From Alphaproteobacteria bacterium (lineage in GTDB: Bacteria; Pseudomonadota; Alphaproteobacteria; Micropepsales; Micropepsaceae): a stretch of DNA of 64,000 bases. The stretch spans positions 15,933 to 79,932 of the forward strand of contig JAGWLZ010000017.1 in the NCBI GenBank assembly GCA_028871895.1. Reading direction: 5' to 3'. Numbering within the stretch: position 1 is the first letter of the stretch; each line of letters starts with the position of its first letter. A program made the position numbers and the translations under genes. Below the pieces are notes generated by a model that was not told the origin of the DNA, searched no databases, and saw nothing but the letters and a program-made list of their open reading frames with translations. Of this stretch, positions 16,472 through 30,684 are shown piece after piece.

Positions 16472-16533
16472 GCTCCTGAGCATCGTGATACGATTCAATC
16501 GGGCGGAAAACGGCTCGCGGGCTTCCTCCAGTA

Positions 16534-17883
16534 TCATTTACGGTCCAGCCCTATGGCGTGCAGGTGCCGCTTGACTCGTCTCAAAGCAAACCAGACGAGC
16601 GCGACGACAGGTATGGTGATGGACCCCGTCGCGACTTCCGGGGAAATTTGTGGCAGCACAACGCTGAGACCTTCCGAAATGCCCTTTAGCAAGCCAATGG
16701 CATAATAGCTGATCGCGACCACCGACAGTCCTTCGACCGTGTGCTGAAGGCGCAATTGGAGCGCCACGCGATGATTCATTGAGCGGAGCTGATCCCTGTT
16801 TTGTTTTTCGACGGCGGTGTCTACGCGGGTCCGAAGTAGGGCGCTCGTCCAGGACACGCGTTGCGATAGTTCATCCAGGCGGTTCGAAAAGGAATCGCAG
16901 GTACGTGCGGCCGGCATGAGTCGGCGTTCGGTGAAGTCGGTCAAGCATTGATAACCGGGAACGACACGCACATCGAGGCTTCGCAGCCGGTCGTTGCTGA
17001 GTTGGGCGTAGGCTCTGGTTGCACTCATGCGATACCGTGTGGAAGCTATAAGCTGCGCCAGTTCCGCGCTTAGGAACGAGACCTCTCGGAGCAACTCGTC
17101 GTCTTGTTGCTGTTGTTCGGCGATTGACGCCGTCAATTGAGAAAGCCTTTGATCGAGTTGCGCGACCTGGGGCATCAGACGCTGGGCCTCCGGCAGGCCC
17201 AAAAGCGCCATGTTGCGGTAGTGGCCCTGTTCGAGCAACCTCTGGATCAGGTTAGAAGGTTCGAATCCTCGCATCCCGCGATCAGCGACGATGAGCCGGC
17301 CGAAACCGTCTCCATGGACGTCGAAGTCGGACCAGAGCCTGGCCTTTCCTCCCGCAAGATCGCACACGACGATATCTGGCCGCGAGAAAATGCGTGCAAG
17401 CTCGCCTGTCGTCGGATCCGGTTCGCCCACGGGCAGATAGAGTATTTGCGTTGCCTGGATAGTTCGTCCCGGCAGTGACGCAAACCAGTCAACGGGGAAA
17501 GCCTCTTCCAATTCGTTCAGATTCAACGGCTGCTTGCGACCGCTGGCGACGACGATGAAAGTGCAGAACTCGCTATGGGCTTCGAAGATCAAGTCGAAAG
17601 CCCCGACGCGTTGCACGAAATATTTACCGATCTTCGTAGTGGGCGGTGATGCGACATCGCCGAGTCGTTGGATATGCTCCATACCCAGCTGCGCGATGTG
17701 CGCCTCACCTTGCATGACAAATTGGACGAGACGGGTCGGGCTCTCGAAGTGCGGGATTCTGCGGACATGCATCTCCTCAGAGATGAAGCTGCGCAATGGA
17801 TGATTGGTTGGCGGCACGACGGAACCGGGAATGAACAGGGTTCTTTCCACGGGTGAGCCAGTATTGATTGGACGACGCTTCAC
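16534..17883 (-). CDS. DUF3422 family membrane-anchored protein
   Basis: HPLR..I.EEMHVR, E.HSEF.TF, RLWSDF..H.DGFGRL, QRLLE...YRNMALLGLP.A, LQLRLQ.TVEGLSVVAISYY motifs. Confidence 0.75.
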   Translation of the reverse strand: MKRRPINTGSPVERTLFIPGSVVPPTNHPLRSFISEEMHVRRIPHFESPTRLVQFVMQGEAHIAQLGMEHIQRLGDVASPPTTKIGKYFVQRVGAFDLIFEAHSEFCTFIVVASGRKQPLNLNELEEAFPVDWFASLPGRTIQATQILYLPVGEPDPTTGELARIFSRPDIVVCDLAGGKARLWSDFDVHGDGFGRLIVADRGMRGFEPSNLIQRLLEQGHYRNMALLGLPEAQRLMPQVAQLDQRLSQLTASIAEQQQQDDELLREVSFLSAELAQLIASTRYRMSATRAYAQLSNDRLRSLDVRVVPGYQCLTDFTERRLMPAARTCDSFSNRLDELSQRVSWTSALLRTRVDTAVEKQNRDQLRSMNHRVALQLRLQHTVEGLSVVAISYYAIGLLKGISEGLSVVLPQISPEVATGSITIPVVALVWFALRRVKRHLHAIGLDRK

Positions 17884-17983: not shown

Positions 17984-19162
17984 CTAGACGTGAGCTTCTG
18001 GCTTTAGCAGTTTGAGCGACCAAAACCCGAGAAACTCTCCAGACGGTGCGAGTTCAAGCGTTCCATTCAATTTTTGGGAGATATTGCATTGCTCAAGATA
18101 CGCAATAATTTGATGCCAGTCATCGGACCCCGGTTCGATCACGTAAACGGAACCATCAGGACGGAGCCGGCAGGGAACTATGCCCACTTCATGTACTCCA
18201 TCCTTTGTCGCACTAACCAAAGCCATCGTCGTCATTCGTGTATCGGGATGCATTGGGAGATATGGCCAACCTTCTCGGGGAGCTACAGCGTACGGAGCTT
18301 TCCAAATATCACCCGAAGACATCTCCGTGAGGAACCTTTCGAGCTCTTCCGCTGACATTCCAAGTTTGAAGTCAAATACAAAATGGCCAAGCCCGTAGAG
18401 AATTGGACACCCTTTATACCACTCCATGCCGCGCAAAGTATGATGGTGATGACCAACGACCATGTCGGCGCCGACATCAATGCAATATCGCGCGGTTCGC
18501 AACTCATGGTCAGATAGATGGTGGGGGCGGCTTTGGTCACCAGCATGAACACTGACGACTACCAAATCCGCCAGCTCCTTTGCACCACGAATATCCCTAG
18601 CCAAGTTCATCATGTCAGATTCGTCAGGAACGGTCGCCGAAATAGGCTGAGCGCCAGGCATGTGTAGGCGTGATATTGGCGTGCGCCACACGTCGTATGC
18701 GCGAATTGGCACCAATCCGGGGATGTTGGCGTAAGCTTCGTACCCCCAGGGGAAAATGCTAGAATAGCCAAGATAAGCTACTGTAAGCCCCTCTGCGCGC
18801 ACCAACGCTGGGGTTCGAGCATCGGAAATATTCTCACCGGCGCCACAAGTTTGTATCCCCTGCTTCCGAAGCCTAGATCTATTTTCAAGCATGGCATCGG
18901 AGCCCACATCAAGTATATGGTTGTTAGCGAGTGAAAGGACGTCAAATCCAACTTTCGAGAACACGTCGAGGTTTGCACCCGCGCCACTAATCATCGCCGA
19001 CATTCCGGAAGCAGGATAAGGAGTGTCCGTATAGGCACCTTCCATGTTACCAAAAAGAATGTCAGGCGCTTTCAAAAGCGCCTGTACGTCGCGAAACGGT
19101 GCTAGAGCGTCTTCACGATTCACAAGCAAGTCGCCTACGAATCCGAGGTTGATGGTCTTCAT
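17984..19162 (-). CDS. CapA/PGA_cap-family metallophosphoesterase-fold protein
   Basis: GDLL, FGNMEG, FDVLSLANNHILD.G, VVSVHAG, VVGHHHH, ILYGLGHFVF. Confidence 0.85.
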   Translation of the reverse strand: MKTINLGFVGDLLVNREDALAPFRDVQALLKAPDILFGNMEGAYTDTPYPASGMSAMISGAGANLDVFSKVGFDVLSLANNHILDVGSDAMLENRSRLRKQGIQTCGAGENISDARTPALVRAEGLTVAYLGYSSIFPWGYEAYANIPGLVPIRAYDVWRTPISRLHMPGAQPISATVPDESDMMNLARDIRGAKELADLVVVSVHAGDQSRPHHLSDHELRTARYCIDVGADMVVGHHHHTLRGMEWYKGCPILYGLGHFVFDFKLGMSAEELERFLTEMSSGDIWKAPYAVAPREGWPYLPMHPDTRMTTMALVSATKDGVHEVGIVPCRLRPDGSVYVIEPGSDDWHQIIAYLEQCNISQKLNGTLELAPSGEFLGFWSLKLLKPEAHV

Positions 19163-19251
19163 GAGTGACTCACTCTTTTTCTGCCAGAACCTGCGCTGGT
19201 CCGTGTTGGTGCCCATTTATGGGAACTCAGAAGCACCTTTATCTACTCACG

Positions 19252-20244
19252 TTAGGAGCTTTGAGCGTCATCATATCTGTTGTGGCCGAGAGACGAGCCA
19301 TGCGCCGCACCGCCGCCATCGAGTATGAGCGCCGCTGCAGCCCAATCCTCAATTGCGGTCCCGACCGACTTGAAGACGATTATCTCATCGTCCGATTTCC
19401 GGCCCTGCACTCGACCACGAATTAACTCAGCCAACTCGCCTTCAATCTGAGATCTACAGATGATGCCCCTATTGAGGGGGCCAATTATGTCACCAGCTTC
19501 TTCTAGCGCTCCAGCGTATGTGTCCACAAAAATGCGCGCTCTGGAAATCAGAACATCGTCGGCTTCACGCTTGGCTGGCGAGAAGCTTCCTATGAGGTCG
19601 ACAAATGTTCCAGGCCTTACCCAGTCGCCATCCAGTACCGGAACCGCGCTATTTGTAGCACAGGACACAATGTCAGCTTGACCTACGGCGGCCGCAATAT
19701 CCATTCGCTGTTCTATTTCAACGTGAGGCACCAGGGCGTGAATGCCGGCGGCGGCGATTTGGACCAGATCGGAACTGCGTCCACATATGCACACGTTGCG
19801 AATTTGACGTACCAAGCAGTGGGCAGCTACGTGTGTTGGGACGATAGGGCCGTCCCCGATAATGACGAGACGTGCACTGTCCATTCGTGACAAATATCTC
19901 GACGCTAATGCGGACGCGGCGGCGGTCCTGAGATGAGTCAAACTAGTTCCATCCATGATGGCAACTGGGGTTCCATATTCGGAAAGCACAAGGACAACCG
20001 CTTGAATATTAGGTAACTTCCTTTCTCTATTGTTTGGTAGAACGGTGAAGAGTTTCACCACACTCAATCCGTTACGCTTGAACGCTGGCATTGCGACTAG
20101 GAGACCATCGTCGCCCTCTGTCGAAAAGTTGAAAGCGTGTCGGTTGGGAACATCGAGCTCCTCGACAAATGCCCGCTCAAGCGCCGTAATCAACGCGCCA
20201 AGAGGAGCACGGGTTTGAATCTGTGCTGCGCTATAATACTCCAT
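19252..20244 (-). CDS. Ornithine cyclodeaminase / mu-crystallin family (imine reductase, DauB/LhpI-like)
   Basis: MPAF, VKLFTV.PNN, DGT.LT.LRTAAASALA..YL, ADIVSCAT, G.F.P..RE.D, FKSVG.AIED. Confidence 0.88.
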   Translation of the reverse strand: MEYYSAAQIQTRAPLGALITALERAFVEELDVPNRHAFNFSTEGDDGLLVAMPAFKRNGLSVVKLFTVLPNNRERKLPNIQAVVLVLSEYGTPVAIMDGTSLTHLRTAAASALASRYLSRMDSARLVIIGDGPIVPTHVAAHCLVRQIRNVCICGRSSDLVQIAAAGIHALVPHVEIEQRMDIAAAVGQADIVSCATNSAVPVLDGDWVRPGTFVDLIGSFSPAKREADDVLISRARIFVDTYAGALEEAGDIIGPLNRGIICRSQIEGELAELIRGRVQGRKSDDEIIVFKSVGTAIEDWAAAALILDGGGAAHGSSLGHNRYDDAQSS

Positions 20245-21538
20245 CCCCGTTTCTCCTAGGATATTTGGCGCGAGTCGTCTTTTGACCAAATCGAGCAAGT
20301 GAATAGGCGGATGCGTCAACGGTAGGTGCCTTTTCATCAAGTAAGTCAGCTAAGAGTTCCGCAGAGCCGGCTGCTGTTGTCCAACCTAAGTGACCGTGAC
20401 CGCAGTTGACATAAAGATTCGCTATTGGTGTCGCGCTCACAATTGGTACGCCGTCGGTCGACATGGGCCTTAAACCACACCATGGTCGAATTCGTGCTGT
20501 GCTCATCGGTAGAATGGGGAGAATTTGGCTTAATTGAGTAGCGAGGTTGCTTAAGCGAGCTTTGCGCAAAGATAGATCAAAACCAGCGAATTCCGCCGTG
20601 CCAGCAACGCGCAAGTCACTACCAAGTGGTACGACCACCACATGAAGCGAGTCGTCAACTAGTGGCGCTCGCAAGGCACAGTGTGATAAGCCGTCAAATA
20701 CGGTCAGCGAGTAACCTTTGACAGGTGTCACCGGGAGATTTAGTCCTGAGAGCTGCAACAAGGGGCTAATGTAGCTTCCTGCTGCAATTACGTACCGGTC
20801 TGCCCGCAGCCTCTGGTCAACCAGATCGAGACACACTAACTGACCGTGTTCTACTCTTAGCGGACCAACTGTCTGGTTGAACAGAAACGCTGCGCCCTCG
20901 GCCTTCGCACGTTCTGCCAAGGCAACGCAAAACTGATAGGCGTCCCCAGTCTCATCTTCGGGATACAGAATTGCGCCCGCGATACCTTTAGATATTGGGG
21001 CCAGCGCAGGTTCGAAAGCCAATAACTCAGGCAGAGTTAGACGCCGTGACTGAATGCCTTCATCTGCTAGGGCTGCAGCGACCTCCAGAGCTTCTTCATG
21101 TGCCTTGTGATTGCGGAACAACTTCAAGGTCCCACGCTCACTTCGGCAATACGAAATACCTGTGACAGCTCGCCATTGCCCCAGGATGTTCAAAGAATAT
21201 TGGGCAAGTCGGAGGTTCTTAACCCGGTTGCGTTTAAAAGCGACTGGGTTAGCGCTTTTTAGAAATGACGGACCCCAGCGAGTCAAAGAGGGCAATGCTT
21301 TCAAGCGGAGCTGAAGAGGAGAATCTTCACGACAGAGCGAACCCAGCAACACCTTCCAGCAACCTGGGGCGTTCCAGGGATCTGCCATGCTCGGTGTCAG
21401 TAAGGCACCATTGGCGTAAGTAGTTTCCAAACCCGGCGCACTGCGGCGCTCTATCACAATGACGTCATGTCCCCGTTTTGCTAAGGCATAAGCAGACGAT
21501 ACACCTATGATACCAGCTCCAATGATTACGACTTTCAT
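20231..21538 (-). CDS. FAD-dependent D-amino acid dehydrogenase (DadA/DauA family)
   Basis: VVIIGAGIIGVSSAY.LA..G.DV.VIER, ET.YANG, PVKGYSLT, RVAGTAEFAG, WCGLRPMS.DG.P, GHGHLGWT.AAGS. Confidence 0.9.
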   Translation of the reverse strand: MKVVIIGAGIIGVSSAYALAKRGHDVIVIERRSAPGLETTYANGALLTPSMADPWNAPGCWKVLLGSLCREDSPLQLRLKALPSLTRWGPSFLKSANPVAFKRNRVKNLRLAQYSLNILGQWRAVTGISYCRSERGTLKLFRNHKAHEEALEVAAALADEGIQSRRLTLPELLAFEPALAPISKGIAGAILYPEDETGDAYQFCVALAERAKAEGAAFLFNQTVGPLRVEHGQLVCLDLVDQRLRADRYVIAAGSYISPLLQLSGLNLPVTPVKGYSLTVFDGLSHCALRAPLVDDSLHVVVVPLGSDLRVAGTAEFAGFDLSLRKARLSNLATQLSQILPILPMSTARIRPWCGLRPMSTDGVPIVSATPIANLYVNCGHGHLGWTTAAGSAELLADLLDEKAPTVDASAYSLARFGQKTTRAKYPRRNGDGVL

Positions 21539-22560
21539 GAGTGCCAAACCGTTTGAGCGACACGAAGCCAGTTTTTGCCCAAGACGCCGCGTACAGATTC
21601 GTCATCTAATCCGGATTGCGATAGCTGATCGGCGATTTCAGTCAACGCTTCAGGCGGTATCATCTTAAGCTCAGTCAGCCCTAGATCGGTCGGAAAGTGT
21701 TGAGGGTTTTCACGTATGGCAGCTTCTAGCTCAGCGGTGTCGAAGACATAGTCCAAGCCCATTCCTACATGTTTCGGCCCAACCACATCGATGGCATATC
21801 GAACATGGTCGACAAAGCGTCTAACGAGATTGACGGATGTACCCAGAAATAGATTTATGCCGGTGATTCCGACCACGCCGCCCGTCGCCGCACATTGCTT
21901 CATCAGTGCGTCGGATACATTTCTTGGATGCGTATGCATCGCCGCAGGATTGGAATGCGACAGTATTACTGGATTGCGGGAATAATCGATCGCCTCTGAA
22001 GCAGTTCGGCTCCCAGTGTGACTAACACAAAGCACCATGCCGGCGCGCTCCATGGCATCTATGAGTCGCCGTCCACAAGGTGTCAGCCCTCCATCGTCAT
22101 CCAGGCATCCGCCGCCAGCGGCGTTACTATAATTGTAAGCAACCAGCATCCATCGTACACCTAGCGAATATAGAACTTCGACGAGGGCGGGGTCTTGCTG
22201 AACAGGGTACATACCCTCAACATCAAATGTGATCCCAAGCTTTCCATCATTGAAACAGGATATTATGTCAGGAACTCGTTCTATCAGACGATAGGTCTGC
22301 GGATTTTTGCTGATCCAATCGCGCATGTGGTTGATAGTGGCAAGATCATCTTGCAGAGTCTTTTCCGCATAGCCAACGTTGATCGAAACGACCCGAAATC
22401 CCGCCCTCCTGTAGCGCTCCAACTGCGGAAGATAGTTATCTTTGGGTAGTAGCGGCAGACATCCATGATTATCCCAGACCAATGATGTACGCACGAGTTC
22501 CGCCCCGCGACAGTGTAGAGGATGTTGCCGGGTTATGATGTTTACGTCCCTAACCATCAC
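21535..22560 (-). CDS. Membrane/renal dipeptidase family (M19)
   Basis: WDNHG, DVEG, GVRWM...YN, GLT..GR.LI..M...GM...SH, SHSN, HPRN, GGVVG, G.GLDY. Confidence 0.85.
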   Translation of the reverse strand: MMVRDVNIITRQHPLHCRGAELVRTSLVWDNHGCLPLLPKDNYLPQLERYRRAGFRVVSINVGYAEKTLQDDLATINHMRDWISKNPQTYRLIERVPDIISCFNDGKLGITFDVEGMYPVQQDPALVEVLYSLGVRWMLVAYNYSNAAGGGCLDDDGGLTPCGRRLIDAMERAGMVLCVSHTGSRTASEAIDYSRNPVILSHSNPAAMHTHPRNVSDALMKQCAATGGVVGITGINLFLGTSVNLVRRFVDHVRYAIDVVGPKHVGMGLDYVFDTAELEAAIRENPQHFPTDLGLTELKMIPPEALTEIADQLSQSGLDDESVRGVLGKNWLRVAQTVWHS

Positions 22561-24445
22561 TGCGGGACCTCGCTTGATTGGGGGCGCCCATTAGAATAGA
22601 GAGAATTAGCCGAGATGGCGTATTCTTTCCGTATAGAACCGTCTGCTTGGCGGGAATCGGTAACCCGACTTTTCCGCCGCGGTTTGTATTGCGATCAAAT
22701 CTGGGGAAATCCGACGAGCAGATACTCAACCGAAGACGGTGACCAGACATAAAGCGATGCGCTGTGGCCCACATATCGATTTCTAAGCGGTGTACATTTC
22801 CTGGCGTGAGTTGTGTTGGTATCGCGGAACGAAAGCGGGAACGTAATATTCCACTTTGAATTAGGATTGCGCGCCCATCTGGGCCGACGTCGGAAAGGTG
22901 CGAAACAAAGTCAGTATCGCGCACCGTCGACCGGACATACAGTTCCAAACGAAGATCCCCCACCACATCAAGTGGCGTGTCCAGAACTGGCGTCGTGTAA
23001 GTCAGGACATCGGGTCGGCTGTCGAGTATAGAAATGTCGGTGCTACCGCCTACATATACATTCGATAAGATGCTTCCACCGAGTGTAGGCGTTGGATTTC
23101 GCGGGTCGTAAACAAAGCTCTCTTCTGCTGAGCCCGAATGCTGGTCACGGCTGAGACCAGCGTCGGGCGCCAAATACAAAGACAATTTATTGGTTTCTGC
23201 TGGGGGCCAAGACCGAGCGGCCCGCCATTCGTTTGCTCCCATCAAATAATAAATAACCTTCGGCCACCAAGATAATTTTCCTGATTGTACCGCGTCGAAC
23301 CAGCGTAGCAGTAATCCAACAATCTGATCAGTTCGGTACGTGCGCTGTAGTTCCGGGTGGCAGAACAATCCTTCATGGTAGCCGGGCCCGTTGTGAGCTC
23401 CAGGAGTTATGATCAGACGACACGTACTTGCAACGGCAGAGCGGCCCTCGCGGTTGAGCAATCGCCACGTCGCCAAAGCATCGTTCAAGCACCAGTCATA
23501 CCATCCAGTGACAATAAGAGGGGGAGCCAGAATCGATTGACACCTTGCTGTCTGCGATACAGCCGGCAAGGTGTGAGCATCGTGTGGTACAGCGTGGCCA
23601 AAGAGTTCCGCCAACCGCTCAACTTCAACAATGGTCACATTTTTGACGTTAAATGCCTTTTTGACGAGTCCTGCGCGCTGGGCGCTCGTGAGTGAGCAGT
23701 ATTTCGCCCACAGCCAACTTTGCGCCTCCGCATGCTTTAGGGATCCAAGTTCGGGGTAAACGTCGATAAGGGCCGGAGGAAACGGCTTCTCGAACGGTTC
23801 GTTATAGAAACCGCCCTTCAGCGTCTGCTCGAGCATTTCGCGCTCGGTCACCGCAAGTGGCTTGAGGTTTTTTCCTACGCCCTTACCTACGGATTTTGCG
23901 TAGGAGTCTAGAAATAGATAAAGATGCGCTGTATTCGAGGCGACCCCGAGCCCACTTACTTCTGGCGCGATGGTCGACATTTTGGGATGCGTTGCCATGC
24001 ACCACTGTGTCTGCCCGGCGTAAGATCCCCCACAAGATCCCAAAAAGCCATTATACCACCGTTGCTGTGCCGCCCATTCAACGCAGTCATAGCTGTCTTC
24101 CGCCTCATACATGTAGTAGTCCCAGGCGTCTGGTTGACTGTCTCCGGTACCTCGGCAATCTTGAGCAACGACGACATAACCCCGGCGTGCCAATACCAAG
24201 AACACCCCAATATTCTTGTCATTCGCACGACCATAAGGCGTCCGAAAAATAATAGCCGGCGCCGGGCATGTACCAGACAGATAAACGTCAGTTGCCAGTT
24301 CCACACCGTCGCGCATGGTAACCATCTCTGTTGTGCAACGAACTTGATCAGGCCCCAGGCAGGGCTTCGGTAAGACTCCAAATGTGAGCGTTTCCTCCAA
24401 AGCAGGTGATATGATAGGTAGTTTTACCTGGGTCACAGAGTCCAT
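22550..24445 (-). CDS. CocE/NonD-family serine hydrolase (S15-like)
   Basis: MRDGVELATDVY, RTPYG, GYVVVAQDCRGTGDS, GGSYAG nucleophile, GWYD, YDP.NPTPTLGG, GHRLRL.I.SSDFPRFDRN.N. Confidence 0.9.
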   Translation of the reverse strand: MDSVTQVKLPIISPALEETLTFGVLPKPCLGPDQVRCTTEMVTMRDGVELATDVYLSGTCPAPAIIFRTPYGRANDKNIGVFLVLARRGYVVVAQDCRGTGDSQPDAWDYYMYEAEDSYDCVEWAAQQRWYNGFLGSCGGSYAGQTQWCMATHPKMSTIAPEVSGLGVASNTAHLYLFLDSYAKSVGKGVGKNLKPLAVTEREMLEQTLKGGFYNEPFEKPFPPALIDVYPELGSLKHAEAQSWLWAKYCSLTSAQRAGLVKKAFNVKNVTIVEVERLAELFGHAVPHDAHTLPAVSQTARCQSILAPPLIVTGWYDWCLNDALATWRLLNREGRSAVASTCRLIITPGAHNGPGYHEGLFCHPELQRTYRTDQIVGLLLRWFDAVQSGKLSWWPKVIYYLMGANEWRAARSWPPAETNKLSLYLAPDAGLSRDQHSGSAEESFVYDPRNPTPTLGGSILSNVYVGGSTDISILDSRPDVLTYTTPVLDTPLDVVGDLRLELYVRSTVRDTDFVSHLSDVGPDGRAILIQSGILRSRFRSAIPTQLTPGNVHRLEIDMWATAHRFMSGHRLRLSICSSDFPRFDRNTNRGGKVGLPIPAKQTVLYGKNTPSRLILSILMGAPNQARSRSDG

Positions 24446-24452
24446 AGCAGAT

Positions 24453-25868
24453 CTACCCAGCAGCCATTGGCCGACGAATAACTTCCTCGATCACTGCATT
24501 GAGCACCGTCAACCCACTACCTAATTGTACTCGCACTAGCGTGTCGTGGTCGGTTACCTGCGCTTCCGAGAATTTTACATAACGTTGAATATCTGCGATG
24601 GCCTCGTCAAAGGCTTTGTCCAAGCGCGCGATGGCACTTTGCATCACTGTCGTCTGGCGCGACACCTTCATCAACCGCACATATTGGTACATTTGGCAGA
24701 GACCCCAGAAGCCCCCATCTACAATGATGGCCTGAAACAAATCTTGTTCAGTCGCGATTTTGTTGTGCTGTGGATTAAACAGCACGTCCCGCGTGGGATG
24801 CAGAGACATGGGCCGCCCTCCTTCTGGCAAGAAATCTCGATTAGGGAATGCGCCGCCAGCTATGGCAGCACGATAGAGCGGACTCTCCTTATCGAGATCA
24901 GTTTCGACCTTTTTCCACTCCTCTAATAAAATTGTCGCAAGATATTTTCCGTCCGCATCAACGCGGAGTTTGAATTTGCGTAGCGGAATTTCTGTTTTGC
25001 GCTTGGATTCGTCCATTGGATGTCGGACATAGCCAAGTTCCGCCACCATCGTCAGAGCCAGTGGTTTGATTTCTTCCAAATAGTCCCAGCTGGACGCGCC
25101 GTAAGGCAGCAACTCTTCGGGACGAGGATTTGAACCAGCCAAATGATCGTAGTGACGCTTGACACTCCAGATTTGACTTATGCCAGCGCCGTAACTTGGG
25201 CAAACCTCTTTCCATATTGGGTTAGTTTGCAAGGGGAAGTGTTGCGACTTGAGAAATTCGTGCAGCTTTTTGTGATAACGATGATCTATATCGCGGTTGA
25301 ATTGGAAGAATGCTCCACCAGTCCAAGCATTATGGAGAGAAAAGAAAAAATCGGGTTTTTCTGCGTCTAAGATTCCTTTGAGCACCTTCGCTTCCAAAGA
25401 GGGGCGCGACCATCTCAAACGTTTGTGATTCACGGGGAAAGAGACGTCGACTTGGTCACCGGGCGCCTGGACATAAAAGTTTCTCATATAGTTTTCGAGG
25501 GAAAATGGCTTAAGGCTCCAAGCTTCGTTTAGTTGTGCTCCATCGGGATCGATGCATGGGACGATATGCCATTCCACATCAGCCTTAGACAGTTCAGCGT
25601 TTCCTTGCTCCAACAGCGATAATATCCCAACGACCGTCAGTCCACAGATTGGCTCCTTGCAGTGGGGATATCCCAGGAGAAGTACCTTTGTTCTACCATT
25701 TCCAAACCGGATTTGGTGAATGGGCTGCTCCTGCGCGCTGTAACCCGCAACACGAACGTCAAATCGGTCGTCATGCGCCAATCGTTCTGCGATTTCGTGC
25801 AGTTGTCGTACCGAACAAAAAGTGTCGAAGTGAGGAAGGTGATCGATAACCTTCTGAACATCGATCAT
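24453..25868 (-). CDS. M14-type zinc carboxypeptidase/amidase
   Basis: G.S....PI..I.FG.G, PHCKEP (HxxE), VPCIDPDG, FFFSLHN. ATGA overlap with MFS stop. Confidence 0.78.
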   Translation of the reverse strand: MIDVQKVIDHLPHFDTFCSVRQLHEIAERLAHDDRFDVRVAGYSAQEQPIHQIRFGNGRTKVLLLGYPHCKEPICGLTVVGILSLLEQGNAELSKADVEWHIVPCIDPDGAQLNEAWSLKPFSLENYMRNFYVQAPGDQVDVSFPVNHKRLRWSRPSLEAKVLKGILDAEKPDFFFSLHNAWTGGAFFQFNRDIDHRYHKKLHEFLKSQHFPLQTNPIWKEVCPSYGAGISQIWSVKRHYDHLAGSNPRPEELLPYGASSWDYLEEIKPLALTMVAELGYVRHPMDESKRKTEIPLRKFKLRVDADGKYLATILLEEWKKVETDLDKESPLYRAAIAGGAFPNRDFLPEGGRPMSLHPTRDVLFNPQHNKIATEQDLFQAIIVDGGFWGLCQMYQYVRLMKVSRQTTVMQSAIARLDKAFDEAIADIQRYVKFSEAQVTDHDTLVRVQLGSGLTVLNAVIEEVIRRPMAAG

Positions 25869-27229
25869 GTCGAACGATCCCCTCCTAATTGCACCAGAGA
25901 TGCGACTTGCTGGTTTTGAGAGTTTTGATTTTGCTCCGTGTAGTTCGAGCCAACTTCGTTTTTCGCGGCAGTCGCCATGTCCGCGGCGATCGTTCGGCTT
26001 GCCAAAAGATAGTGCCAGGCGGCCCAAAGATAGCCCGGGCACAAGGCCAACAGAGCGTAGCGAAGAGAATTATGCCCAAATGCTGTGCTAAGGCTGTCGC
26101 TGAGCGCGCCTGTGACCAGAGGCCCAATCCCCATGCCGATAAGATTCGTGAAGAAATACGTGACTGCTATGGCCGTCGCACGTGTCCGCGCAGGCACCAG
26201 TGACTGTATCATGGCAAAGAGCGGCCCATAGGTTGCATAGCTACTAATCGCGGTCAGGCCAAGGAATCCGAATGCTATGCCGGCGTTCGGTGCCAAATAA
26301 GTCCCCGTCGAAATGAACGCAAACGCAACGTAGATCCCGGCAAAAGCAAGAAGCTGGGCCCGTTCGTTCCGTGAAGCAAAGCGAGAAACGAGTTCACCGC
26401 CAAGCAATGTGCCTATGAGGCCGCCTACTCCCCACACAATGGCGAACCAAGTGCCAAGCTGTTCAACACTGAGCCCGTAGCTGCGGAAAAAGTAGGTAGG
26501 CGCCCACAGAAAATTTCCAATTCCGAAGAACGCCATGAGGGAGTAACCGATCACTACATGACGGAACGTACGGTTTTTCCAGAGTAGACTATAAGTCTGT
26601 CGATTGGTGAACTCTCGCTCTGCGACGAAGTCCCTCGACCTTTCCTCGGTTTTCGCCGCTCGCCGTGGTTCCCTCAGCGTGACCAAGCAGAGCACTGCCA
26701 GCGCCAAACCTGGCAACCCTAAAAGCATAAACATAAGTCGCCAGCCATACAGTCCACTTAACCAGCCAGCCGCGAAATAGCCAACGATCGAGCTAACAGG
26801 GTAGCCAAGCATGTAGAGCGCTGTGGCTCTGGGGCGCGCGTCCCGCGTGAAGTAATCTGCGATCAGAGAATTAGAGGCCGGAAAGCAACCGGCTTCTCCT
26901 ACGGCAACGGCGACGCGAATTATCATTAGCTGTAAGAAGCTTCCTGCGGCGCCACAAAGCGCTACTGCCGCACATTGTAACGCCGTCGTAAGAGAAAGGA
27001 TGCTTACTCGGCTTCCACGGTCAGCCCATCGCGCCAACGGCACGCCCATCACGGCATAAAATAGAGTGAACGCGATTCCCGTAAGCAGCCCCAGCTGAGT
27101 ATCTGATAGCTTCAGATCAACCTTTATACTTTGCAGGACAACACCTAACGCCGCATGCTCCACTTTATTGAACACCAAGACCACGAACAGAACAAAAAGT
27201 AAGTATTTTTGATGAGTACCTTTTTGCAT
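25865..27229 (-). CDS. MFS transporter (spinster-like)
   Basis: IK.DL.LSDTQLGLLTGIAF.LFYA.MG.PLARWADRGSR, VGEAG..PAS.SLIADYF; about 12 hydrophobic segments. Start uncertain. Confidence 0.88.
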   Translation of the reverse strand: MQKGTHQKYLLFVLFVVLVFNKVEHAALGVVLQSIKVDLKLSDTQLGLLTGIAFTLFYAVMGVPLARWADRGSRVSILSLTTALQCAAVALCGAAGSFLQLMIIRVAVAVGEAGCFPASNSLIADYFTRDARPRATALYMLGYPVSSIVGYFAAGWLSGLYGWRLMFMLLGLPGLALAVLCLVTLREPRRAAKTEERSRDFVAEREFTNRQTYSLLWKNRTFRHVVIGYSLMAFFGIGNFLWAPTYFFRSYGLSVEQLGTWFAIVWGVGGLIGTLLGGELVSRFASRNERAQLLAFAGIYVAFAFISTGTYLAPNAGIAFGFLGLTAISSYATYGPLFAMIQSLVPARTRATAIAVTYFFTNLIGMGIGPLVTGALSDSLSTAFGHNSLRYALLALCPGYLWAAWHYLLASRTIAADMATAAKNEVGSNYTEQNQNSQNQQVASLVQLGGDRST

Positions 27230-27288
27230 CGCAAATCTGGTGACGCCCAAGAGGGCGCCACCACCTTTGTGCAGAACGGCGCACACGC

Positions 27289-29511
27289 CTACAACTTTGC
27301 GGTAAGCGCCAACATGAAGGTCCGTGGTTGATATACCGATGCAGACTGGGGACCATTACCGCCGGCAGAAGTTTCATCGAGGACATAATTGATAGCCAAT
27401 TTATTCGCCACATTCTTCACAGAGAACGTCAACGAATAATCCTGGTTTTCGACACCTGCTCGCAGATCGATGATGTTAAACTGTGGCATCTTTTGTCGCG
27501 TGCTCGTCGGTTCGAATTCTGCCATGCGCGAACCAGTGTAGTGCCAATCGACGCCCTCAAAGCTAGAATAATCTGCAAACAGAGGCTGCTCGTATGACGC
27601 AGAAAATGACGTTTCCCACATCGGCGAACTCGGCAACCGGTCCCCAGTCTTACCACCCACGTTAGCTGGCGTATCTTCCGTTAATCTCGCATCTGTATAG
27701 GAACCATTGAAACCAAGCGTGAGGCCACTCAGAGGAGTATAGTTCACACTCCATTCCGCGCCGTCACTTCGAGCTGTGCCACCATTGGCATACGTGCCAT
27801 ACCCATTAATGTACGCAAACAATTGGATGTTGGACCAATGTACAGTAAACGCGTCAAACTCCGTAATCAACGCGCCGTCTAGCATGCTGCTCTTGACGCC
27901 CAGTTCGTAATTTGTGGTTGTCGAAGCCTTGTAAAATGGCGGTACAGGCGCGGAAGGAACGGCATTTGCCGGGCCGCCGGGCGAGAAACCTGTAGCGACG
28001 CGTGCGTAGAGCATGTGCTCGTCGGTAACGTGCCAACGCGCGTCAGCCGAGTATGTGAGCGTGTCCTCCGATGAGGTACGTGTAAAGTCAGACGTTCCGA
28101 GAAACTTGCCGCTCGTTGTCTGATGCAAAAGTTGGCTATTCCTACTGTAACGTCCGCCAACCGCTACATCAAAGGCAGGCGAGAAGTGGTAGTCAACATT
28201 CGCGTATCCCGCATATTCGCGATAGTTTGAAGGATACATCGCCTCGCCGACCGTAGGTGCCGTAGCAGTCTCTATTGTATGAGTACTCAAGCTGGCTGCC
28301 GCGTAGTACAACCAATAATGGGATACCTCGTCGGTAAAGAAGCCACCGAGCATCCACTGTAGTGGACTATCGCCTTCGGACGACAAGCGGAGCTCTTGAG
28401 TAATAGCGTGCAACGGGCGATTTTGAACGTTGCCCACGCCGGAGGGGCTACCGACGATACTGCTGACAAAGGCACCGTATCGTTTGCTGCGATCCCACGT
28501 AAAATAGGGGTCAAATTCCGATTCGCTGGTGGCGGAAACCAGATTTCCAATTCCGAGGTCCCAGTTAATCGTTGCATTGTAAATCTGAGTGATAACGTGC
28601 CCGGGCTGTGCAATCACATTTTCCTGACACAACGAGCAATAGATTGGCGCAAATGTGTTTGGGTTGACGTCTTCATTACCCGCATCCGACCAGCCACGCA
28701 CTTGATAAAGAGCATTGAGTCGAAGCGAAAAAGTGTCTGCCGGCTGATAGAGGAATGACGCCCGCATACCTGTATAGTGGGACCCGTTGATGTGGCTGAG
28801 ATTACGACCAGGGTCGTCGATGAAGCCGGGATAATAATTGTCATACGCCACTACGCGCAGTGCAGTGTCGTTTGTGAGCGGAACATTGACCATCCCATGT
28901 ACGTCAAACCCCACGCCGCCATGCTCAACGGAGCTGACGCCAGCCTCAAGCTTATCGGAGAATGCCGTCGGGTCTGGAGCGTTGGTGACGAACTTTAGGA
29001 GGCCTCCCAGCGCATTTGATCCGTAAAGCGTACCTTGCGGGCCACGCAGAACCTCGATGCGCTGCATGTCAAAGGTGTCGAGATTAGGTGCTGAAGCAAA
29101 CGAACCGGCGAGCCCTCCGTTTACGTTGTACGGCGTTTCATCGATGTAGCTAGCCACGGGCGAAGTAGTAGGAACGGCACCAGTGGTGATACCTCGAATA
29201 ACAAGGGAGCTACCTGCCCCATTCCAGGAATTCATCCACGTCAGGCCAGGAACATTACCTACATAGTCCTCGAAGCGATACGCCTGTGTTCGTTCCAACT
29301 TTTCGCCGCTGAGCGCTGTTAGCGACATTGGCACATCAAGCGACGATTCCTTTTGCTTCTCGGCCGTGACAGTAACGGTCTCGATCACGTTACGCGTATT
29401 CTCGCTCGTACTAGCATTGGAAACAGCGCCCGCGCTCTGCGCAACCGCAGGAGCCGCGAATCCGCACAAAATCACCGTCGACAGTAGCCATTTCGCCTTA
29501 TGCAAAGACAT
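27289..29511 (-). CDS. TonB-dependent receptor 1
   Basis: Signal peptide, IETVTVTAEK TonB box, RIEVLRGPQGTLYG.NALGG plug motif, C-terminal PRTF...TAKL. Confidence 0.92.
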   Translation of the reverse strand: MSLHKAKWLLSTVILCGFAAPAVAQSAGAVSNASTSENTRNVIETVTVTAEKQKESSLDVPMSLTALSGEKLERTQAYRFEDYVGNVPGLTWMNSWNGAGSSLVIRGITTGAVPTTSPVASYIDETPYNVNGGLAGSFASAPNLDTFDMQRIEVLRGPQGTLYGSNALGGLLKFVTNAPDPTAFSDKLEAGVSSVEHGGVGFDVHGMVNVPLTNDTALRVVAYDNYYPGFIDDPGRNLSHINGSHYTGMRASFLYQPADTFSLRLNALYQVRGWSDAGNEDVNPNTFAPIYCSLCQENVIAQPGHVITQIYNATINWDLGIGNLVSATSESEFDPYFTWDRSKRYGAFVSSIVGSPSGVGNVQNRPLHAITQELRLSSEGDSPLQWMLGGFFTDEVSHYWLYYAAASLSTHTIETATAPTVGEAMYPSNYREYAGYANVDYHFSPAFDVAVGGRYSRNSQLLHQTTSGKFLGTSDFTRTSSEDTLTYSADARWHVTDEHMLYARVATGFSPGGPANAVPSAPVPPFYKASTTTNYELGVKSSMLDGALITEFDAFTVHWSNIQLFAYINGYGTYANGGTARSDGAEWSVNYTPLSGLTLGFNGSYTDARLTEDTPANVGGKTGDRLPSSPMWETSFSASYEQPLFADYSSFEGVDWHYTGSRMAEFEPTSTRQKMPQFNIIDLRAGVENQDYSLTFSVKNVANKLAINYVLDETSAGGNGPQSASVYQPRTFMLALTAKL

Positions 29512-29548
29512 ACGCCCCCTCCTTGTATCTGGTCACCGTGACACTTTA

Positions 29549-29565
29549 TTGGAGATTATATCCAA
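29549..29565. promoter_or_regulatory. Candidate GntR operator upstream of TonB receptor 1
   Basis: TTGGAGATTATATCCAA; 7/8 palindromic pairs. Confidence 0.6.
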
Positions 29566-29775
29566 AATCAAATGTTCTTTTGGGCTGTCCGTGCTTAATC
29601 CCGCATGAGCGGAAAATCGTCGAAATTCGTTCGCTACCAAATCGACCGCAGGGCAACAGCCCACAGGCTCTTGAGGCACGAATTCGTCGCTAACCAGCAA
29701 TGTACTAAGAGGCACGCAGGAATGTGGGAACAGGAATGCAGGGCTAGGGATACTCCCTCCTGCTCAATCGCCAGA

Positions 29776-30519
29776 TCAGGCTGCCTGATTACCGCGTTGT
29801 TGAACCGGTTCGCGCTCTAAAATCTCCAACAAGTCTACACGAGCACGATCAATGTGATCGTGGGTCAACGCAACTGCCTGCCTAACAGCGCGCTTGCGGC
29901 ATAGATCCAAGAGCCCGCCATGATCCTCCTTTGCGCGTTCTACGCCAGTCCCCAAAGTGAGCACCAACCTAGTGTACCGATCAGTGTTGACTAGCAAACC
30001 GCGCACGATCTCAAGCGTTTTGCTTCGTTCCGACGCAGCATAAAGTGCTATGTGGAACCGCGTATTGTGCTCACCCCAGCTTAGAACATCTGAATTATCT
30101 AAGCCGACATTATAAGAGGTGAGGATTTTTTCAGCCGAGGTCAGATGCTCAGGAGTCATTTTGGGAATAGCTATTTCCAATAATTGCGGCTCCAACAAAG
30201 AGCGGAGTTCAAATAGCTCCAAGATCTCACTCCTCGAAAGAGCCGTGACTACATAGCCGCGATGAGGATAACTCGCTGCCAAACCTTCACTTTCGAGGCG
30301 AAATAGCGCTTCACGAATGGGAATGCGGCTAACACCAAATTGCTCAGCTAGCGCGTCCTGCCGAAGTGCCGTTCCGTCAGCCAGCTCGCCCGAAATAATC
30401 ATTCTTCGCAGCTGCTCGGTGGTCGCGTCAGCCACTGTTGTCCGCGGCAGTTTGCGCGAAGGCCGCGAGCCGACACGCAACCGTTCAGTCCCTGCTCGGA
30501 TTTGGGAAGAGTCTCGCAT
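29776..30519 (-). CDS. GntR-family regulator (FCD domain)
   Basis: LRRMIISGEL..G..LRQDALAEQFGVSRIPIREAL.RLESEGL....P.RG..V; FCD motifs FH.ALY and EDH..LL. Confidence 0.92.
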   Translation of the reverse strand: MRDSSQIRAGTERLRVGSRPSRKLPRTTVADATTEQLRRMIISGELADGTALRQDALAEQFGVSRIPIREALFRLESEGLAASYPHRGYVVTALSRSEILELFELRSLLEPQLLEIAIPKMTPEHLTSAEKILTSYNVGLDNSDVLSWGEHNTRFHIALYAASERSKTLEIVRGLLVNTDRYTRLVLTLGTGVERAKEDHGGLLDLCRKRAVRQAVALTHDHIDRARVDLLEILEREPVQQRGNQAA

Positions 30520-30595
30520 ATCTTCTTATATGACAGCGCTGCGAGCCTGGCAATTGGATAAATTGTACATATGTAAATGGATCAATCGACCATTA

Positions 30596-30612
30596 TCGGA
30601 TATAATATTAAA
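30596..30612. promoter_or_regulatory. Second copy of candidate GntR operator (autoregulatory)
   Basis: TCGGATATAATATTAAA, 14/17 to the idealised palindrome TTGGATATNATATCCAA. A weaker copy lies at 30554-30570. Confidence 0.5.
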
Positions 30613-30684
30613 TATTCTGCAACTCATTCTGAACAATCCGAAATGGGACCGGTGTTGTCGCGTCGAGCTTGGCGCCACCGAATG

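Follow-up and report, generated by a model that had tools for sequence, protein, structure and literature searches.

A candidate locus for peptide import and D-to-L amino-acid salvage on a mobile element of Rhizomicrobium sp.

TonB-dependent loci such as the CUT loci of Xanthomonas and Caulobacter, the PULs of Bacteroidota and RagAB bring together the genes of an outer-membrane TonB-dependent receptor (TBDR), a transporter of the inner membrane, enzymes for degradation and a regulator of their own. The locus described here is organised in the same way, and its relatives share ECF/anti-sigma signalling with many PULs. It differs from CUT and PUL loci in its cargo, which would be a peptide and not a glycan, in the absence of a SusD-like lipoprotein, in the presence of a D-amino-acid salvage pair and an epimerase-like protein, and in that all hydrolases are cytoplasmic, so that the compound would be imported whole.

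The recycling of murein tripeptide in E. coli (MppA/Opp, MpaA, the L-Ala-D/L-Glu epimerase YcjG and PepD) follows the same logic, in which a D-residue peptide is imported, cut by an M14-type amidase, epimerised at its D-centre and finally hydrolysed as a dipeptide, but with different components. The putative epimerase of our locus is a calcineurin-fold PGA_cap protein and not a member of the enolase superfamily, the dipeptidase belongs to M19 instead of M20, a TBDR and an MFS permease replace the ABC transporter, the M14-like protein has an additional helical domain and belongs to a small family of its own, and the oxidase/reductase pair and the link to proline have no counterpart.

MslH, the epimerase of the C-terminal Trp of a lasso peptide (structure 8gq9), is a soluble, homologous member of the PGA_cap family; the protein of our locus lies in a catabolic context instead of a RiPP cluster, with no MslB1-like partner. 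In the DauA/DauB system (D-Arg) and in D-Lys and D-Pro catabolism via a Pip2C/Pyr2C reductase, an FAD D-amino-acid dehydrogenase acts before an NAD(P)H imine reductase, which yields the L-form, as proposed here, but the two genes of our pair lie within an operon for the import and hydrolysis of a peptide, not in a free amino-acid regulon. Relatives of the core module resemble ferric-siderophore uptake systems (Fec-type ECF/FecR/TBDR; Fes/PfeE esterases) in their ECF/FecR/STN-TBDR arrangement, some of them beside NRPS or esterase modules, whereas the locus studied here has a GntR/FCD regulator, peptidases instead of trilactone esterases and a catabolic funnel. No pathway with such a gene set was found in the literature searched, in agreement with an earlier note on this DNA, which had not recognised the combination as a described one.

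Layout, relatives and regulation of the locus

The window, i.e. the whole stretch of 64,000 nucleotides that was analysed, comes from Rhizomicrobium sp., a soil bacterium that carries the nine-gene set, which is also met with in unrelated bacteria, on a mobile element. The block proposed in the earlier note was recovered in full: nine co-oriented genes on the minus strand (30519-17984), without internal stops, in the order GntR/FCD regulator, TBDR, MFS permease, M14-like peptidase, S15 CocE/NonD hydrolase, M19 dipeptidase, DadA-type dehydrogenase, OCD-family reductase and PGA_cap protein. With refined starts, the GntR and TBDR genes are separated by 264 nt and the TBDR and MFS genes by 59 nt; the MFS and M14-like genes overlap by 4 nt (ATGA), the S15 gene follows the M14-like gene after 7 nt and overlaps the M19 gene by 8 nt, the M19 and DadA genes overlap by 4 nt (ATGA), the DadA and OCD genes by 14 nt, and the PGA_cap gene follows after 89 nt. 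The tight junctions claimed before are thus real from the permease through the reductase (-14 to +7 nt). As had also been claimed, the hydrolases have no leader, and a signal peptide and TonB box were present in the TBDR only. The PutA/GDH module, which had been called adjacent, is separated from the block: PGA_cap is directly followed by DUF3422, then by an AsnC-type regulator on the plus strand (about 15977-16426), PutA and, after PutA, GDH.

The block is a low-GC island inside an ICE, with GC3 values of 0.48-0.57 against 0.66-0.83 for its neighbours and a genome GC of 0.614, and an IS transposase gene (Pfam DUF772 and DDE_Tnp_1; 30817-31896, minus strand; GC3 0.83) marks its boundary. Horizontal acquisition of the block, about 17984-30700, as ICE cargo is the best explanation. 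The locus is rare, occurring in one of 401 Sphingomonadales and in none of 40 relatives, and the M14-like gene was not found in 24 congeners.

The conserved-cluster search suggested in the earlier note identified all nine families together in Rhizorhabdus dicambivorans, where the cluster adjoins MobA/TraD, and in the metagenome locus L073. Locus L068 has eight families, without GntR and PGA_cap, in whose place ECF/FecR regulators are found. An actinomycete MAG encodes the same enzymes in a GntR-SBP_bac_5-M19-PGA_cap operon, a peptide-type ABC binding protein replacing the TBDR and the MFS permease. Among 28 related metagenome loci flanked by 5 kb or more, a TBDR was present in 22, an MFS permease in 21 and an S15 hydrolase in nine; ECF sigma/FecR genes adjoin the receptor in 20 of the 28, and the annotated receptors of the ECF-type loci carry STN. 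The wider rule suggested by these neighbourhoods is TBDR-MFS-M14-like, usually under ECF/FecR control. Judged by synteny and composition, the grouping of the genes is far beyond chance, since other taxa share the synteny of these families and the block stands apart from its surroundings in composition.

The regulator (247 aa; 29776-30519) consists of a GntR domain (Pfam, 60.7 bits) and an FCD effector domain (72.4 bits). A perfect palindrome, TTGGA-N7-TCCAA, is located at 29549-29565, 37 nt upstream of the TBDR start codon, and occurs as a perfect copy once in the window and twice in the genome. The syntenic loci L066 and L073 keep its arms and spacing (ATTGGACATTTTATCCAAT), and an imperfect copy precedes the TBDR of L073; the element is kept across the three loci, placed before the operon or before the regulator gene. 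A degenerate copy, CAATTTATCCAATTG, lies upstream of the GntR gene (30551-30565, minus strand) and shares the 13 nt TTTATCCAATTGC with the DAO-GntR intergenic regions of L066 and L073. The regulators of these three operator-bearing loci are 70-72% identical, above their enzymes, which are merely 50-60% identical. TTGGA-N7-TCCAA is a candidate operator of the GntR protein.

Receptor, permease, hydrolases and PGA_cap protein

The TBDR (740 aa; 27289-29511; Pfam Plug and beta-barrel) lacks an STN signalling domain and has a signal peptide ending in AVA, followed by QS, and a TonB-box-like ETVTVTA. Its nearest solved relative is FyuA, at E=1e-25 only, and its identity to the TBDRs of related loci is merely 24-34%, so that the ligands may differ between loci. 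The MFS permease (454 aa from the likely ATG; 25865-27229; MFS_1, 169 bits) is 49-58% identical to permeases adjoining M14-like genes elsewhere; its best subfamily is TIGR00893, of the anion:cation symporter type, with 125 bits, under the cut-off of that model.

The next gene (471 aa; 24453-25868), whose start overlaps the MFS stop (ATGA), gave no Pfam or NCBIfam match at E<=1e-3. Its assignment to M14 in the earlier note was nevertheless correct at the level of fold and profile: the AlphaFold (AF2) model (pLDDT 94) had M14 carboxypeptidases as top Foldseek matches in the PDB (probability 1.0), and a 30-sequence profile matched carboxypeptidase B (E=1e-4) across the HxxE..(N/D)PDG region. H69, E72, H179 and E277 are conserved in this distant M14-like zinc peptidase, which has an extra C-terminal helical domain. 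The position of CPA N144-R145 is occupied, in a mapping by hand, by S143-F144, and the classical carboxylate clamp is absent. The family is small, with 692 representatives at E<=1e-3 among 1.84 billion.

The S15 CocE/NonD-family serine hydrolase (631 aa; 22550-24445; Peptidase_S15 and PepX_C) is cytoplasmic and scored 303.8 bits with TIGR00976 (CocE_NonD; cut-off 66.3); cocaine esterase is the nearest solved structure (E=1e-62), and the motifs GGSYAG, GWYD and PGAH are present. The M19 renal-dipeptidase-type enzyme (340 aa; 21535-22557; Peptidase_M19, 235.8 bits), also cytoplasmic, has 2i5g, GliJ and Sco3058 as nearest PDB entries. Its N-terminal metal motif is H-x-C, not H-x-D, and the sequence VWDNHGC is kept in the orthologues of L066, L068 and L073.

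The last gene codes for a calcineurin-fold protein (392 aa from MKTINLGFVGD; 17984-19162; PGA_cap, 185 bits). The earlier label, CapA, was right as to family and wrong in so far as it implies a membrane-bound capsule-synthesis protein, the product being soluble and MslH-like. Against the MslH structure 8gq9 (E=7e-25), residues D11, N87, H88, D91, H259 and H295 of MslH aligned to identical residues and E44 apparently aligned; the Ca ligand H261 is replaced by Gly, leaving apparently three of four Ca ligands. Both His/Asp catalytic dyads are kept, and the motifs are conserved in five orthologues. The score with the MslH equivalog, 108 bits, is far under the cut-off of 700. The residue epimerised by MslH is C-terminal and has its carboxylate free; an epimerase function has also been proposed for CapA (PMC10406935, PMC8179263). 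The PGA_cap protein is thus a candidate peptide C-alpha epimerase.

The D-to-L pair, its link to proline and the NRPS neighbours

The FAD-dependent D-amino-acid dehydrogenase (435 aa; 20231-21538) belongs to the DadA subfamily (NF001933, 400.3 bits; cut-off 383), and the DAO genes of L066, L068 and L073 likewise scored above this cut-off. The neighbouring NAD(P)H imine reductase of the OCD/mu-crystallin family (330 aa; 19252-20244; OCD_Mu_crystall) had NF004793, a Pyr2C/Pip2C reductase, as best NCBIfam model, with 321.7 bits, 0.3 below the equivalog cut-off of 322. The same model was the best for the OCD proteins of L066, L068 (336.7 bits, above cut-off) and L073, and the PDB search identified the Pyr2C reductase 6t3e (E=2e-45). 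Of the earlier label, OCD, the family therefore stands and the cyclodeaminase reading does not; a Pyr2C/Pip2C-type imine reductase is the best reading. Acyclic imines (Ala, Arg, Asp) are also reduced by OCD-family enzymes, so L-Pro is a candidate product only. Reduction of ketimines arising from alpha-amino-acid oxidation has been described for the OCD superfamily (PMC4113996). The recurrence of the two genes points to selection for the pair, since both are present in four loci, which fall into two lineages with two arrangements of the genes (38% versus 51% identity).

Outside the island, an AsnC/Lrp-type (PutR-like) regulator (15899-16471, plus strand; GC3 0.71) is divergent from PutA, a proline dehydrogenase/P5C dehydrogenase (12822-15839, minus strand; Pfam Pro_dh-DNA_bdg, Pro_dh and Aldedh). 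The regulator is 53% identical (tblastn) to the AsnC protein encoded between PGA_cap and PutA in L073, and PutA is 63% identical to the PutA after the cluster in that locus; a second PutA, 50% identical, is encoded elsewhere in the genome, the ICE copy being an extra one. AsnC and PutA thus follow the cluster in two compositionally unrelated settings, the window and the independent L073. This upholds the link to proline catabolism in the earlier claim that the locus feeds a PutA/GDH module. PutA and GDH are outside the transferred block, because their GC3 differs, they have their own regulator and DUF3422 lies between; any feeding is metabolic and not by way of a single operon. Given this separate composition and regulator, the adjacency of PutA in the window could be secondary. 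The ICE PutA is the likely sink for L-proline produced.

NRPS genes follow the locus in L068, L081 and L072, with the first A-domain code DVQFIAHVVK; DVQFIAHV.K is listed as Pro in a published table (PMC2866473). The second A domain was readable in L072 alone, as DAKDLGVVD, which we take to be a Glu code. The next C domain has the N-terminal sequence HHLLSERGGD or HNLLDERAGD, near the dual E/C hallmark HH[I/L]xxxxGD and one residue longer than the published pattern. The candidate substrates of the earlier note, which ranged from cyclic or D-amino acid peptides to siderophores and peptidoglycan or poly-gamma-D-Glu fragments, may be narrowed by these codes toward a proline- and glutamate-containing nonribosomal peptide.

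Alternative readings and proposed function

Metallophore (siderophore) piracy, in which a foreign peptide-metal complex would be imported, its ligand destroyed for the metal and the pieces recycled by the D-amino-acid pair, has several points in its favour and seems unlikely. Most core-module relatives are under ECF/FecR and have an STN receptor, a layout chiefly familiar from the uptake of ferric siderophores; in these genomes, neighbouring modules combine a TBDR and an esterase of PF00756, the enterobactin-esterase family; three loci adjoin an NRPS, like siderophore systems; and the best NCBIfam model of the window TBDR is a siderophore-receptor subfamily, with FyuA as nearest structure. The TBDR score is 125 bits, however, far under the siderophore cut-off of 223, and the window locus, L066 and L073 are under metabolite-type GntR/FCD regulators, with receptors lacking STN. 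No Fur-box-like site (at least 14/19) was found in any promoter region of ten loci and no FhuF/SIP-type siderophore reductase among the annotated genes of these loci, both of which count against piracy. Metal release needs no full catabolic funnel (DadA, imine reductase, PutA), and Pro and Glu, the first two NRPS residues, are not metal-binding groups.

Salvage of cell-wall D-peptides, either peptidoglycan stem peptides or poly-gamma-D/L-glutamate oligomers, is rather improbable. The M14-like enzyme would act as MpaA or as a gamma-D-Glu-diamino-acid peptidase, PGA_cap on gamma-glutamyl units whose alpha-carboxylate is free, M19 on L-Ala-D-Glu and DadA on D-Ala, which DadA enzymes favour. The scheme parallels the MpaA (M14)/YcjG epimerase/PepD logic of E. 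coli, the CapA family known from poly-gamma-glutamate systems corresponds to PGA_cap, the MFS permease belongs to the anion type and the surroundings of the actinomycete locus include an MR_MLE (enolase-superfamily) gene. Yet it gives no role to the Pyr2C/Pip2C-type reductase or the recurrent PutA link and leaves unexplained why NRPS genes with Pro and Glu codes lie beside related loci; the rarity of the locus is odd for a ubiquitous substrate, amidase, NagZ and AmpG-type genes are absent, and AmpG-type models are not among the MFS matches listed.

Still more doubtful is a substrate without D-residues, namely proline- or hydroxyproline-rich peptides of plants or animals. In this reading S15 would be an X-Pro peptidase, while DAO would oxidise the imino acid and OCD would reduce Pyr2C in a route of the hydroxyproline type. 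X-Pro dipeptidyl peptidases do belong to the S15 family, OCD-family Pyr2C reductases take part in the trans-3-hydroxyproline pathway, in whose neighbourhoods peptidases are found, a Pro_racemase-family gene adjoins a related module in L075, and the PutA link would fit. The window cluster, however, lacks Pro_racemase-family, DHDPS-type deaminase and KGSA dehydrogenase genes, all the dehydrogenases are of the DadA subfamily, and M19 and the MslH-like PGA_cap point to D-stereochemistry. Accidental juxtaposition of genes that do not work together, conceivable since ICE cargo regions are mosaics and an IS borders the block, is highly improbable in view of the uniform, atypical composition and the overlapping or 7-nt junctions, and is already contradicted by the synteny of nine families in two other lineages with a common operator.

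The peptide-utilisation locus proposed in the earlier note is coherent and conserved, with cytoplasmic hydrolases and a D-to-L salvage pair. Its gene content, synteny, composition as an island, common operator and conserved active sites were observed directly; what it imports, in which order the steps run, whether PGA_cap acts as an epimerase and which D-residue is involved we infer as follows. GntR would repress an acquired catabolic locus, and an exogenous peptide too large for porins, probably acidic and nonribosomal and with at least one D-residue, would cross the outer membrane through the TBDR and the inner membrane via the anion-type MFS permease. In the cytoplasm the S15 hydrolase may open an ester, acyl or N-terminal bond and the atypical M14-like peptidase may trim residues with a free alpha-carboxylate; PGA_cap would epimerise the C-alpha of the free-carboxylate residue, so that a D-residue would not block trimming, and M19 would split the leftover L-Xaa-D-Xaa dipeptide. 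The DadA-type dehydrogenase would oxidise the freed D-amino acid, most likely D-Pro, with D-Orn or D-Lys as alternatives, and the resulting cyclic imine would be turned into the L-imino acid by the OCD-family reductase; L-Pro would be consumed by the extra PutA of the ICE (and GDH). On balance, and by a modest degree, the comparisons favour a locus that imports an acidic, D-residue-containing and probably nonribosomal peptide and dismantles it in the cytoplasm, with D-to-L salvage into proline.

Gene content and origin of the cluster

The cluster spans 30519 to 17984 on the minus strand and consists of nine complete genes in tandem orientation. Profile searches (Pfam, NCBIfam) named eight of the nine: a GntR regulator with an FCD domain; a TonB-dependent receptor (TBDR) with Plug and barrel and no STN signalling domain; an MFS_1 permease, whose best subfamily match was the anion:cation symporter model TIGR00893; an S15 hydrolase of the CocE/NonD type (TIGR00976, 303.8 bits, cut-off 66.3); an M19 dipeptidase (PF01244, 235.8 bits against 26, with 312 of the 319 profile positions covered); a D-amino-acid dehydrogenase of the DadA subfamily (NF001933, 400.3 bits against 383); an OCD/mu-crystallin protein; and a PGA_cap protein (185 bits). 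The exception was the M14-like gene, M14L (25868-24453, minus strand, 471 aa), whose ATG overlaps the MFS stop codon. After refinement of the start codons the junctions measure, in order, +264, +59, -4, +7, -8, -4, -14 and +89 nt, and the TBDR is the sole protein to show a signal peptide or a TonB box. Since the profile matches, the junctions and the sole signal peptide all agree with it, the gene-by-gene description given in the earlier note was accurate, including its claim that the hydrolases lack signal peptides. Scanning the cluster for terminator and promoter consensus sequences yielded sites, terminators included, no more frequently than in shuffled sequences.

RpoC of the same assembly groups with Rhizomicrobium sp. 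proteins at 90% identity or more. The nine genes have a GC content of 0.50-0.54 and a GC3 of 0.48-0.57, in a genome of GC 0.614. An IS transposase gene (DUF772 and DDE_Tnp_1; 30817-31896, minus strand; GC3 0.83) lies directly upstream of this low-GC block and marks its boundary; no convincing direct or inverted repeats were found flanking it. M14L is a single-copy gene in the genome, and was not found in 40 relatives (24 congeneric species and 16 other genomes of the class) nor in 400 Sphingomonadales besides the one known carrier. Because its composition is atypical and M14L is missing from relatives, the block is a separately acquired island within the cargo of the integrative and conjugative element (ICE).

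The neighborhoods of M14L orthologues, 46-63% identical to the window gene, were compared. In Rhizorhabdus dicambivorans (two assemblies, L066 and L067) a D-amino-acid dehydrogenase gene (DAO) on the minus strand is followed by GntR-OCD-TBDR-MFS-M14L-S15-M19-PGA_cap, adjoining MobA/TraD; the metagenome locus L073 has the same gene order, then AsnC (minus strand) and PutA. The grouping for which a conserved-cluster search had been proposed is therefore a recurrent one. Two further metagenome loci, L068 and L081, have ECF/FecR regulators followed by TBDR-M14L-MFS-S15-M19-DadA-OCD, and other loci read ECF-FecR-TBDR(STN)-MFS-M14L with varying combinations of S15, amidohydrolase, M19 or PGA_cap. 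Identity to the window proteins was 70-72% for GntR, 50-58% for S15, 50-58% for M19 (27-31% for a second M19 type), 53-60% for PGA_cap (46% in an actinomycete MAG), 38-51% for DadA, 34-51% for OCD and only 24-34% for the TBDR; MFS identity was 49-58% where the order is TBDR-MFS-M14L and 32-41% for other flanking permeases.

Of 28 additional metagenome loci, each with 5 kb or more of flanking sequence, 22 had a TBDR, 21 an MFS and 20 ECF/FecR; the enzymes were less frequent (S15 in nine, amidohydrolase in four, PGA_cap and M19 in three each, DadA with OCD in two), and GntR and PutA each occurred in 1/28. As the compared neighborhoods and these counts agree on receptor, permease and M14L, the three form the invariant core, of which the window locus is the rare, fully elaborated version. 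In the actinomycete MAG the enzymes are tied to peptide-type binding proteins (SBP_bac_5), with an operon GntR-SBP-M19-PGA_cap. A contig search for M14L relatives returned two close ones (L001, from this MAG, and L002), the others being actinomycete paralogues of 23-38% identity without synteny. A second M14-like copy in the MAG (G042:C14:441528-442937, L001 784-2196) has one in-frame TGA and is a pseudogene, unless the TGA stems from faulty assembly.

Some genomes, represented by the metagenome/MAG contigs L069, L070, L074 and L075, carry at least three ECF-FecR-TBDR(STN)-MFS-hydrolase modules in a row. Their hydrolases are of the amidohydrolase, S15, M19, M14-like, PGA_cap or PF00756 esterase kind, and it looks as though every module served a different amide or peptide ligand.

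The hydrolases and the PGA_cap protein

Searches with M14L against Pfam, NCBIfam (E≤1e-3) and PDB sequences gave no match, and the gathering score of PF00246 was not reached; for some orthologues a weak PF00246 match is precomputed. The family is small: 1.84 billion representatives include 692 members at E≤1e-3, of which 114 remain at 1e-30; of 8,000 candidates scored from a set of 5.8 billion proteins, 246 were homologues at E≤1e-3. An AlphaFold (AF2) model built from a 30-sequence alignment had a pLDDT of 94, and its best 50 Foldseek matches in the PDB were almost all M14 carboxypeptidases or putative M14-like metallopeptidases (probability 1.0, target TM-score ≤0.63). The region of the predicted model that matches them is the N-terminal ~300 residues, to which a helical domain of ~170 residues is appended.

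The M14L profile aligned with carboxypeptidases B and A (CPB, CPA) at E=1e-4 through the HxxE and (N/D)PDG motifs. H69 and E72 are conserved in 29/30 sequences of the alignment, H179 and E277 in all 30; E277 was paired with the catalytic E270 of CPA by position only. In a motif alignment made by hand, without superposition, QVD141-x-S143-F144-P sits opposite VD142-A-N144-R145 of CPA, S143-F144 taking the place of the N144-R145 carboxylate clamp. The assignment to M14 made in the earlier note thus holds at the level of fold and profile: carboxypeptidase alpha/beta fold, HxxE...H zinc ligands and catalytic Glu.

The S15 protein is related to the cocaine esterase CocE (E=1e-62) and has the motifs of a Ser-Asp-His triad (GGS141YAG, GWYD316, PGAH350). 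Canonical renal-type dipeptidases carry DGH-N-D at their N-terminal metal motif. In the window M19 protein (residues 28-34, window 22450-22470) and its orthologues of L066, L068 and L073 the motif is VWDNH31-G-C33, with Cys where Asp is expected; Cys33 could still bind zinc. In the second M19 type (L072, L074, L075 and L001) even the His is gone (VFDML, VWDMT).

The PGA_cap protein is homologous to MslH (E=7e-25), the lasso-peptide C-terminal epimerase of this family, and keeps both of its dyads, His88/Asp91 and His295/Asp11. Of the MslH Ca ligands, Asn87 and His259 are identical, Glu44 is apparently kept (by eye) and His261 is replaced by Gly. The motifs GD, NME, ANNHxxD, S[VF]H and GHHHH are kept in five orthologues; the score with the equivalog of MslH-type epimerases, NF038314, was far below its cut-off (108 bits against 700). 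The gene had previously been called CapA. Membership of the PGA_cap family was upheld, but the membrane anchor is absent, the N-terminus MKTINLGFVGD having no hydrophobic segment, and profile searches found no PgsB/C-like partner gene in the cluster; the protein is predicted to be soluble. M14L and PGA_cap are adjacent or close by in seven loci. M14-type enzymes target the free-carboxylate handle, the same as MslH. The reaction of MslH, which acts on the C-terminal residue with a free carboxylate, is an epimerization, and its discoverers propose CapA as an epimerase (PMC10406935, PMC8179263).

Proposed D-to-L conversion, link to proline catabolism and regulation

The DAO genes belong to the DadA subfamily in all four loci that have one, with NF001933 scores of 497 (L066), 392 (L068) and 550 bits (L073) outside the window, against the cut-off of 383. 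For the OCD genes the top-scoring model in 4/4 loci was NF004793, a reductase of the cyclic imines Pyr2C and Pip2C; with a cut-off of 322, the scores were 321.7 bits in the window, 336.7 in L068 (above), and 271.8 in L066 and 254.7 in L073 (both below). The closest solved structures to the OCD protein include Pyr2C reductase, and enzymes of the OCD superfamily are described as reducing ketimines that derive from alpha-amino acids, among them Pyr2C, which yields L-Pro (PMC4113996). The DadA and OCD pair is present in two lineages and in two gene orders, which argues that its function is required.

Two other readings were discarded. For the OCD gene, ornithine cyclodeaminase proper scored 108 bits against a cut-off of 350 (NF005762), and an opine-type (Oox/Ocd) system is ruled out by the DadA subfamily of the dehydrogenase and by the TBDR/MFS transport.

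An AsnC/Lrp (PutR-like) regulator gene (15899-16471, plus strand; homology 15977-16426), 53% identical to the AsnC of L073, is divergent from PutA. A spurious ORF of greater length (15859-16479), which lies in a different frame and gave no Pfam match, hides this gene. The AsnC and PutA unit also lies 3' of the cluster in L073, AsnC there being located between PGA_cap and PutA. A second PutA (contig C74:92141-95182) is 50% identical to the ICE copy (12822-15839), which makes the PutA on the ICE an additional, accessory one. Between the island and AsnC/PutA lies a DUF3422 gene (16534-17883, minus strand; 436 bits) of host-like GC3 (0.66), which was not found beside the cluster in L066 or L073; the GC3 of DUF3422, AsnC, PutA and GDH is 0.66-0.71. 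The PutA/GDH module proposed to receive the products of the cluster is thus close by, with PutA near the cluster in L073 too, but it is not strictly adjacent, DUF3422 and AsnC intervening, and its composition differs. This difference shows that PutA was not acquired together with the island and, since the AsnC and PutA unit occurs again in L073, the adjacency of cluster and PutA has arisen at least twice.

A perfect palindrome, TTGGAGATTATATCCAA, is located at 29549-29565, 37 nt upstream of the TBDR ATG. In L066 and L073 the intergenic region between DAO and GntR contains ATTGGACATTTTATCCAAT, with identical arms and identical spacing. Upstream of the window GntR the right half is kept, and 13 identical bases are common, TTTATCCAATTGC. 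The perfect palindrome is found once in the window and twice in the genome, against 1.8 copies expected; because this count is close to expectation, the case for a candidate operator rests on its conservation across loci and on a regulator that is conserved to an unusual degree.

The nonribosomal peptide link and the proposed function of the locus

Nonribosomal peptide synthetase (NRPS) genes of two types, 57% identical, lie directly downstream of three related loci (L072:12594-17576, L068:18164-21404 and the 3' end of L081). Their A-domain codes were read by alignment to the GrsA Phe-activating domain as reference, for which the known code DAWTIAAICK was returned. The second A domain of L072 gave DAKDLGVVD, which we take to be a Glu code. 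The first A domain gave DVQFIAHVVK in 3/3 loci, and DVQFIAHV.K stands for Pro in a published table (PMC2866473). The C domain between the A domains, next after the first, has close to its N-terminus HHLLSERGGD or HNLLDERAGD, a near-match, one residue longer, to the hallmark of dual epimerization/condensation domains, HH[I/L]xxxxGD (PMC1894796). No NRPS was found in the window genome, and its host would therefore be a consumer of the peptide, not a producer.

We consider it somewhat probable that this is a mobile, GntR-controlled locus for the import and cytoplasmic dismantling of a large acidic D-residue peptide, with D-to-L conversion into PutA. This peptide would probably be a nonribosomal product with Pro and Glu among its residues. 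Once it is in the cytoplasm, the S15, M14-like and M19 enzymes would break it down, PGA_cap would epimerize the residues with a free carboxylate, and the DadA/imine-reductase pair would turn a D-residue, most simply D-Pro, into L-Pro for PutA.

The main rival, metallophore piracy in which metal is freed by hydrolysis of the ligand, appears unlikely. ECF/FecR/STN contexts, present in many relatives of the window locus, and NRPS contexts speak for it. At the window locus itself, however, the Fec-type hallmarks are missing, the receptor having Plug and barrel only and no STN, the regulator being GntR/FCD and a Fur site not being seen; no Fur-like box was found in the promoter regions of ten loci either, which is weak negative evidence. 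A reductase gene is absent, and a catabolic funnel is present. Salvage of cell-wall or gamma-PGA peptides, which is quite improbable, and use of Hyp/Pro-rich peptides, for which the chances are slimmer still, fit less of the evidence. So does juxtaposition of the genes by chance, which is hardly credible.

Peptides with D-amino acids (nonribosomal antibiotics, lipopeptides, metallophores, cell-wall fragments) abound in soil and withstand ordinary peptidases; their consumption by Gram-negative bacteria is, to our knowledge, not well understood. The parts of the locus are of known kinds: TonB-dependent utilization loci, a logic like that of murein-peptide use and redox D-to-L shunts. The earlier remark that the combination is not a described pathway was borne out in the literature searched, where neither the gene combination, the M14-like family, a catabolic CapA/MslH setting nor the Pro/Glu NRPS link was found. 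We suggest only tentatively that the locus may represent a new way of catabolizing nonribosomal peptides with D-residues, in which a soluble CapA/MslH-type "C-terminal de-epimerase" and a new family of M14-like carboxypeptidases would trim mixed D/L peptides residue by residue. The module would spread on mobile elements and serve to consume or pirate a Pro/Glu peptide of other soil bacteria, which would make it with an NRPS encoded beside a homologous, ECF/FecR-controlled system and re-import it through that system.

For dismantling of a D-residue peptide, the locus offers a complete parts list: an import receptor and a permease, three cytoplasmic hydrolases, one of them from a small undescribed M14-like family, and a redox shunt from the D- to the L-form that would feed proline catabolism. 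It would also give the enigmatic CapA/MslH fold a candidate catabolic role. The locus is mobile, being ICE cargo in the window and lying beside conjugation genes in Rhizorhabdus, and the pathway is directly testable because a cultured strain carries the full set. The NRPS link points to a likely natural substrate and to producer/consumer relations around a secreted peptide.
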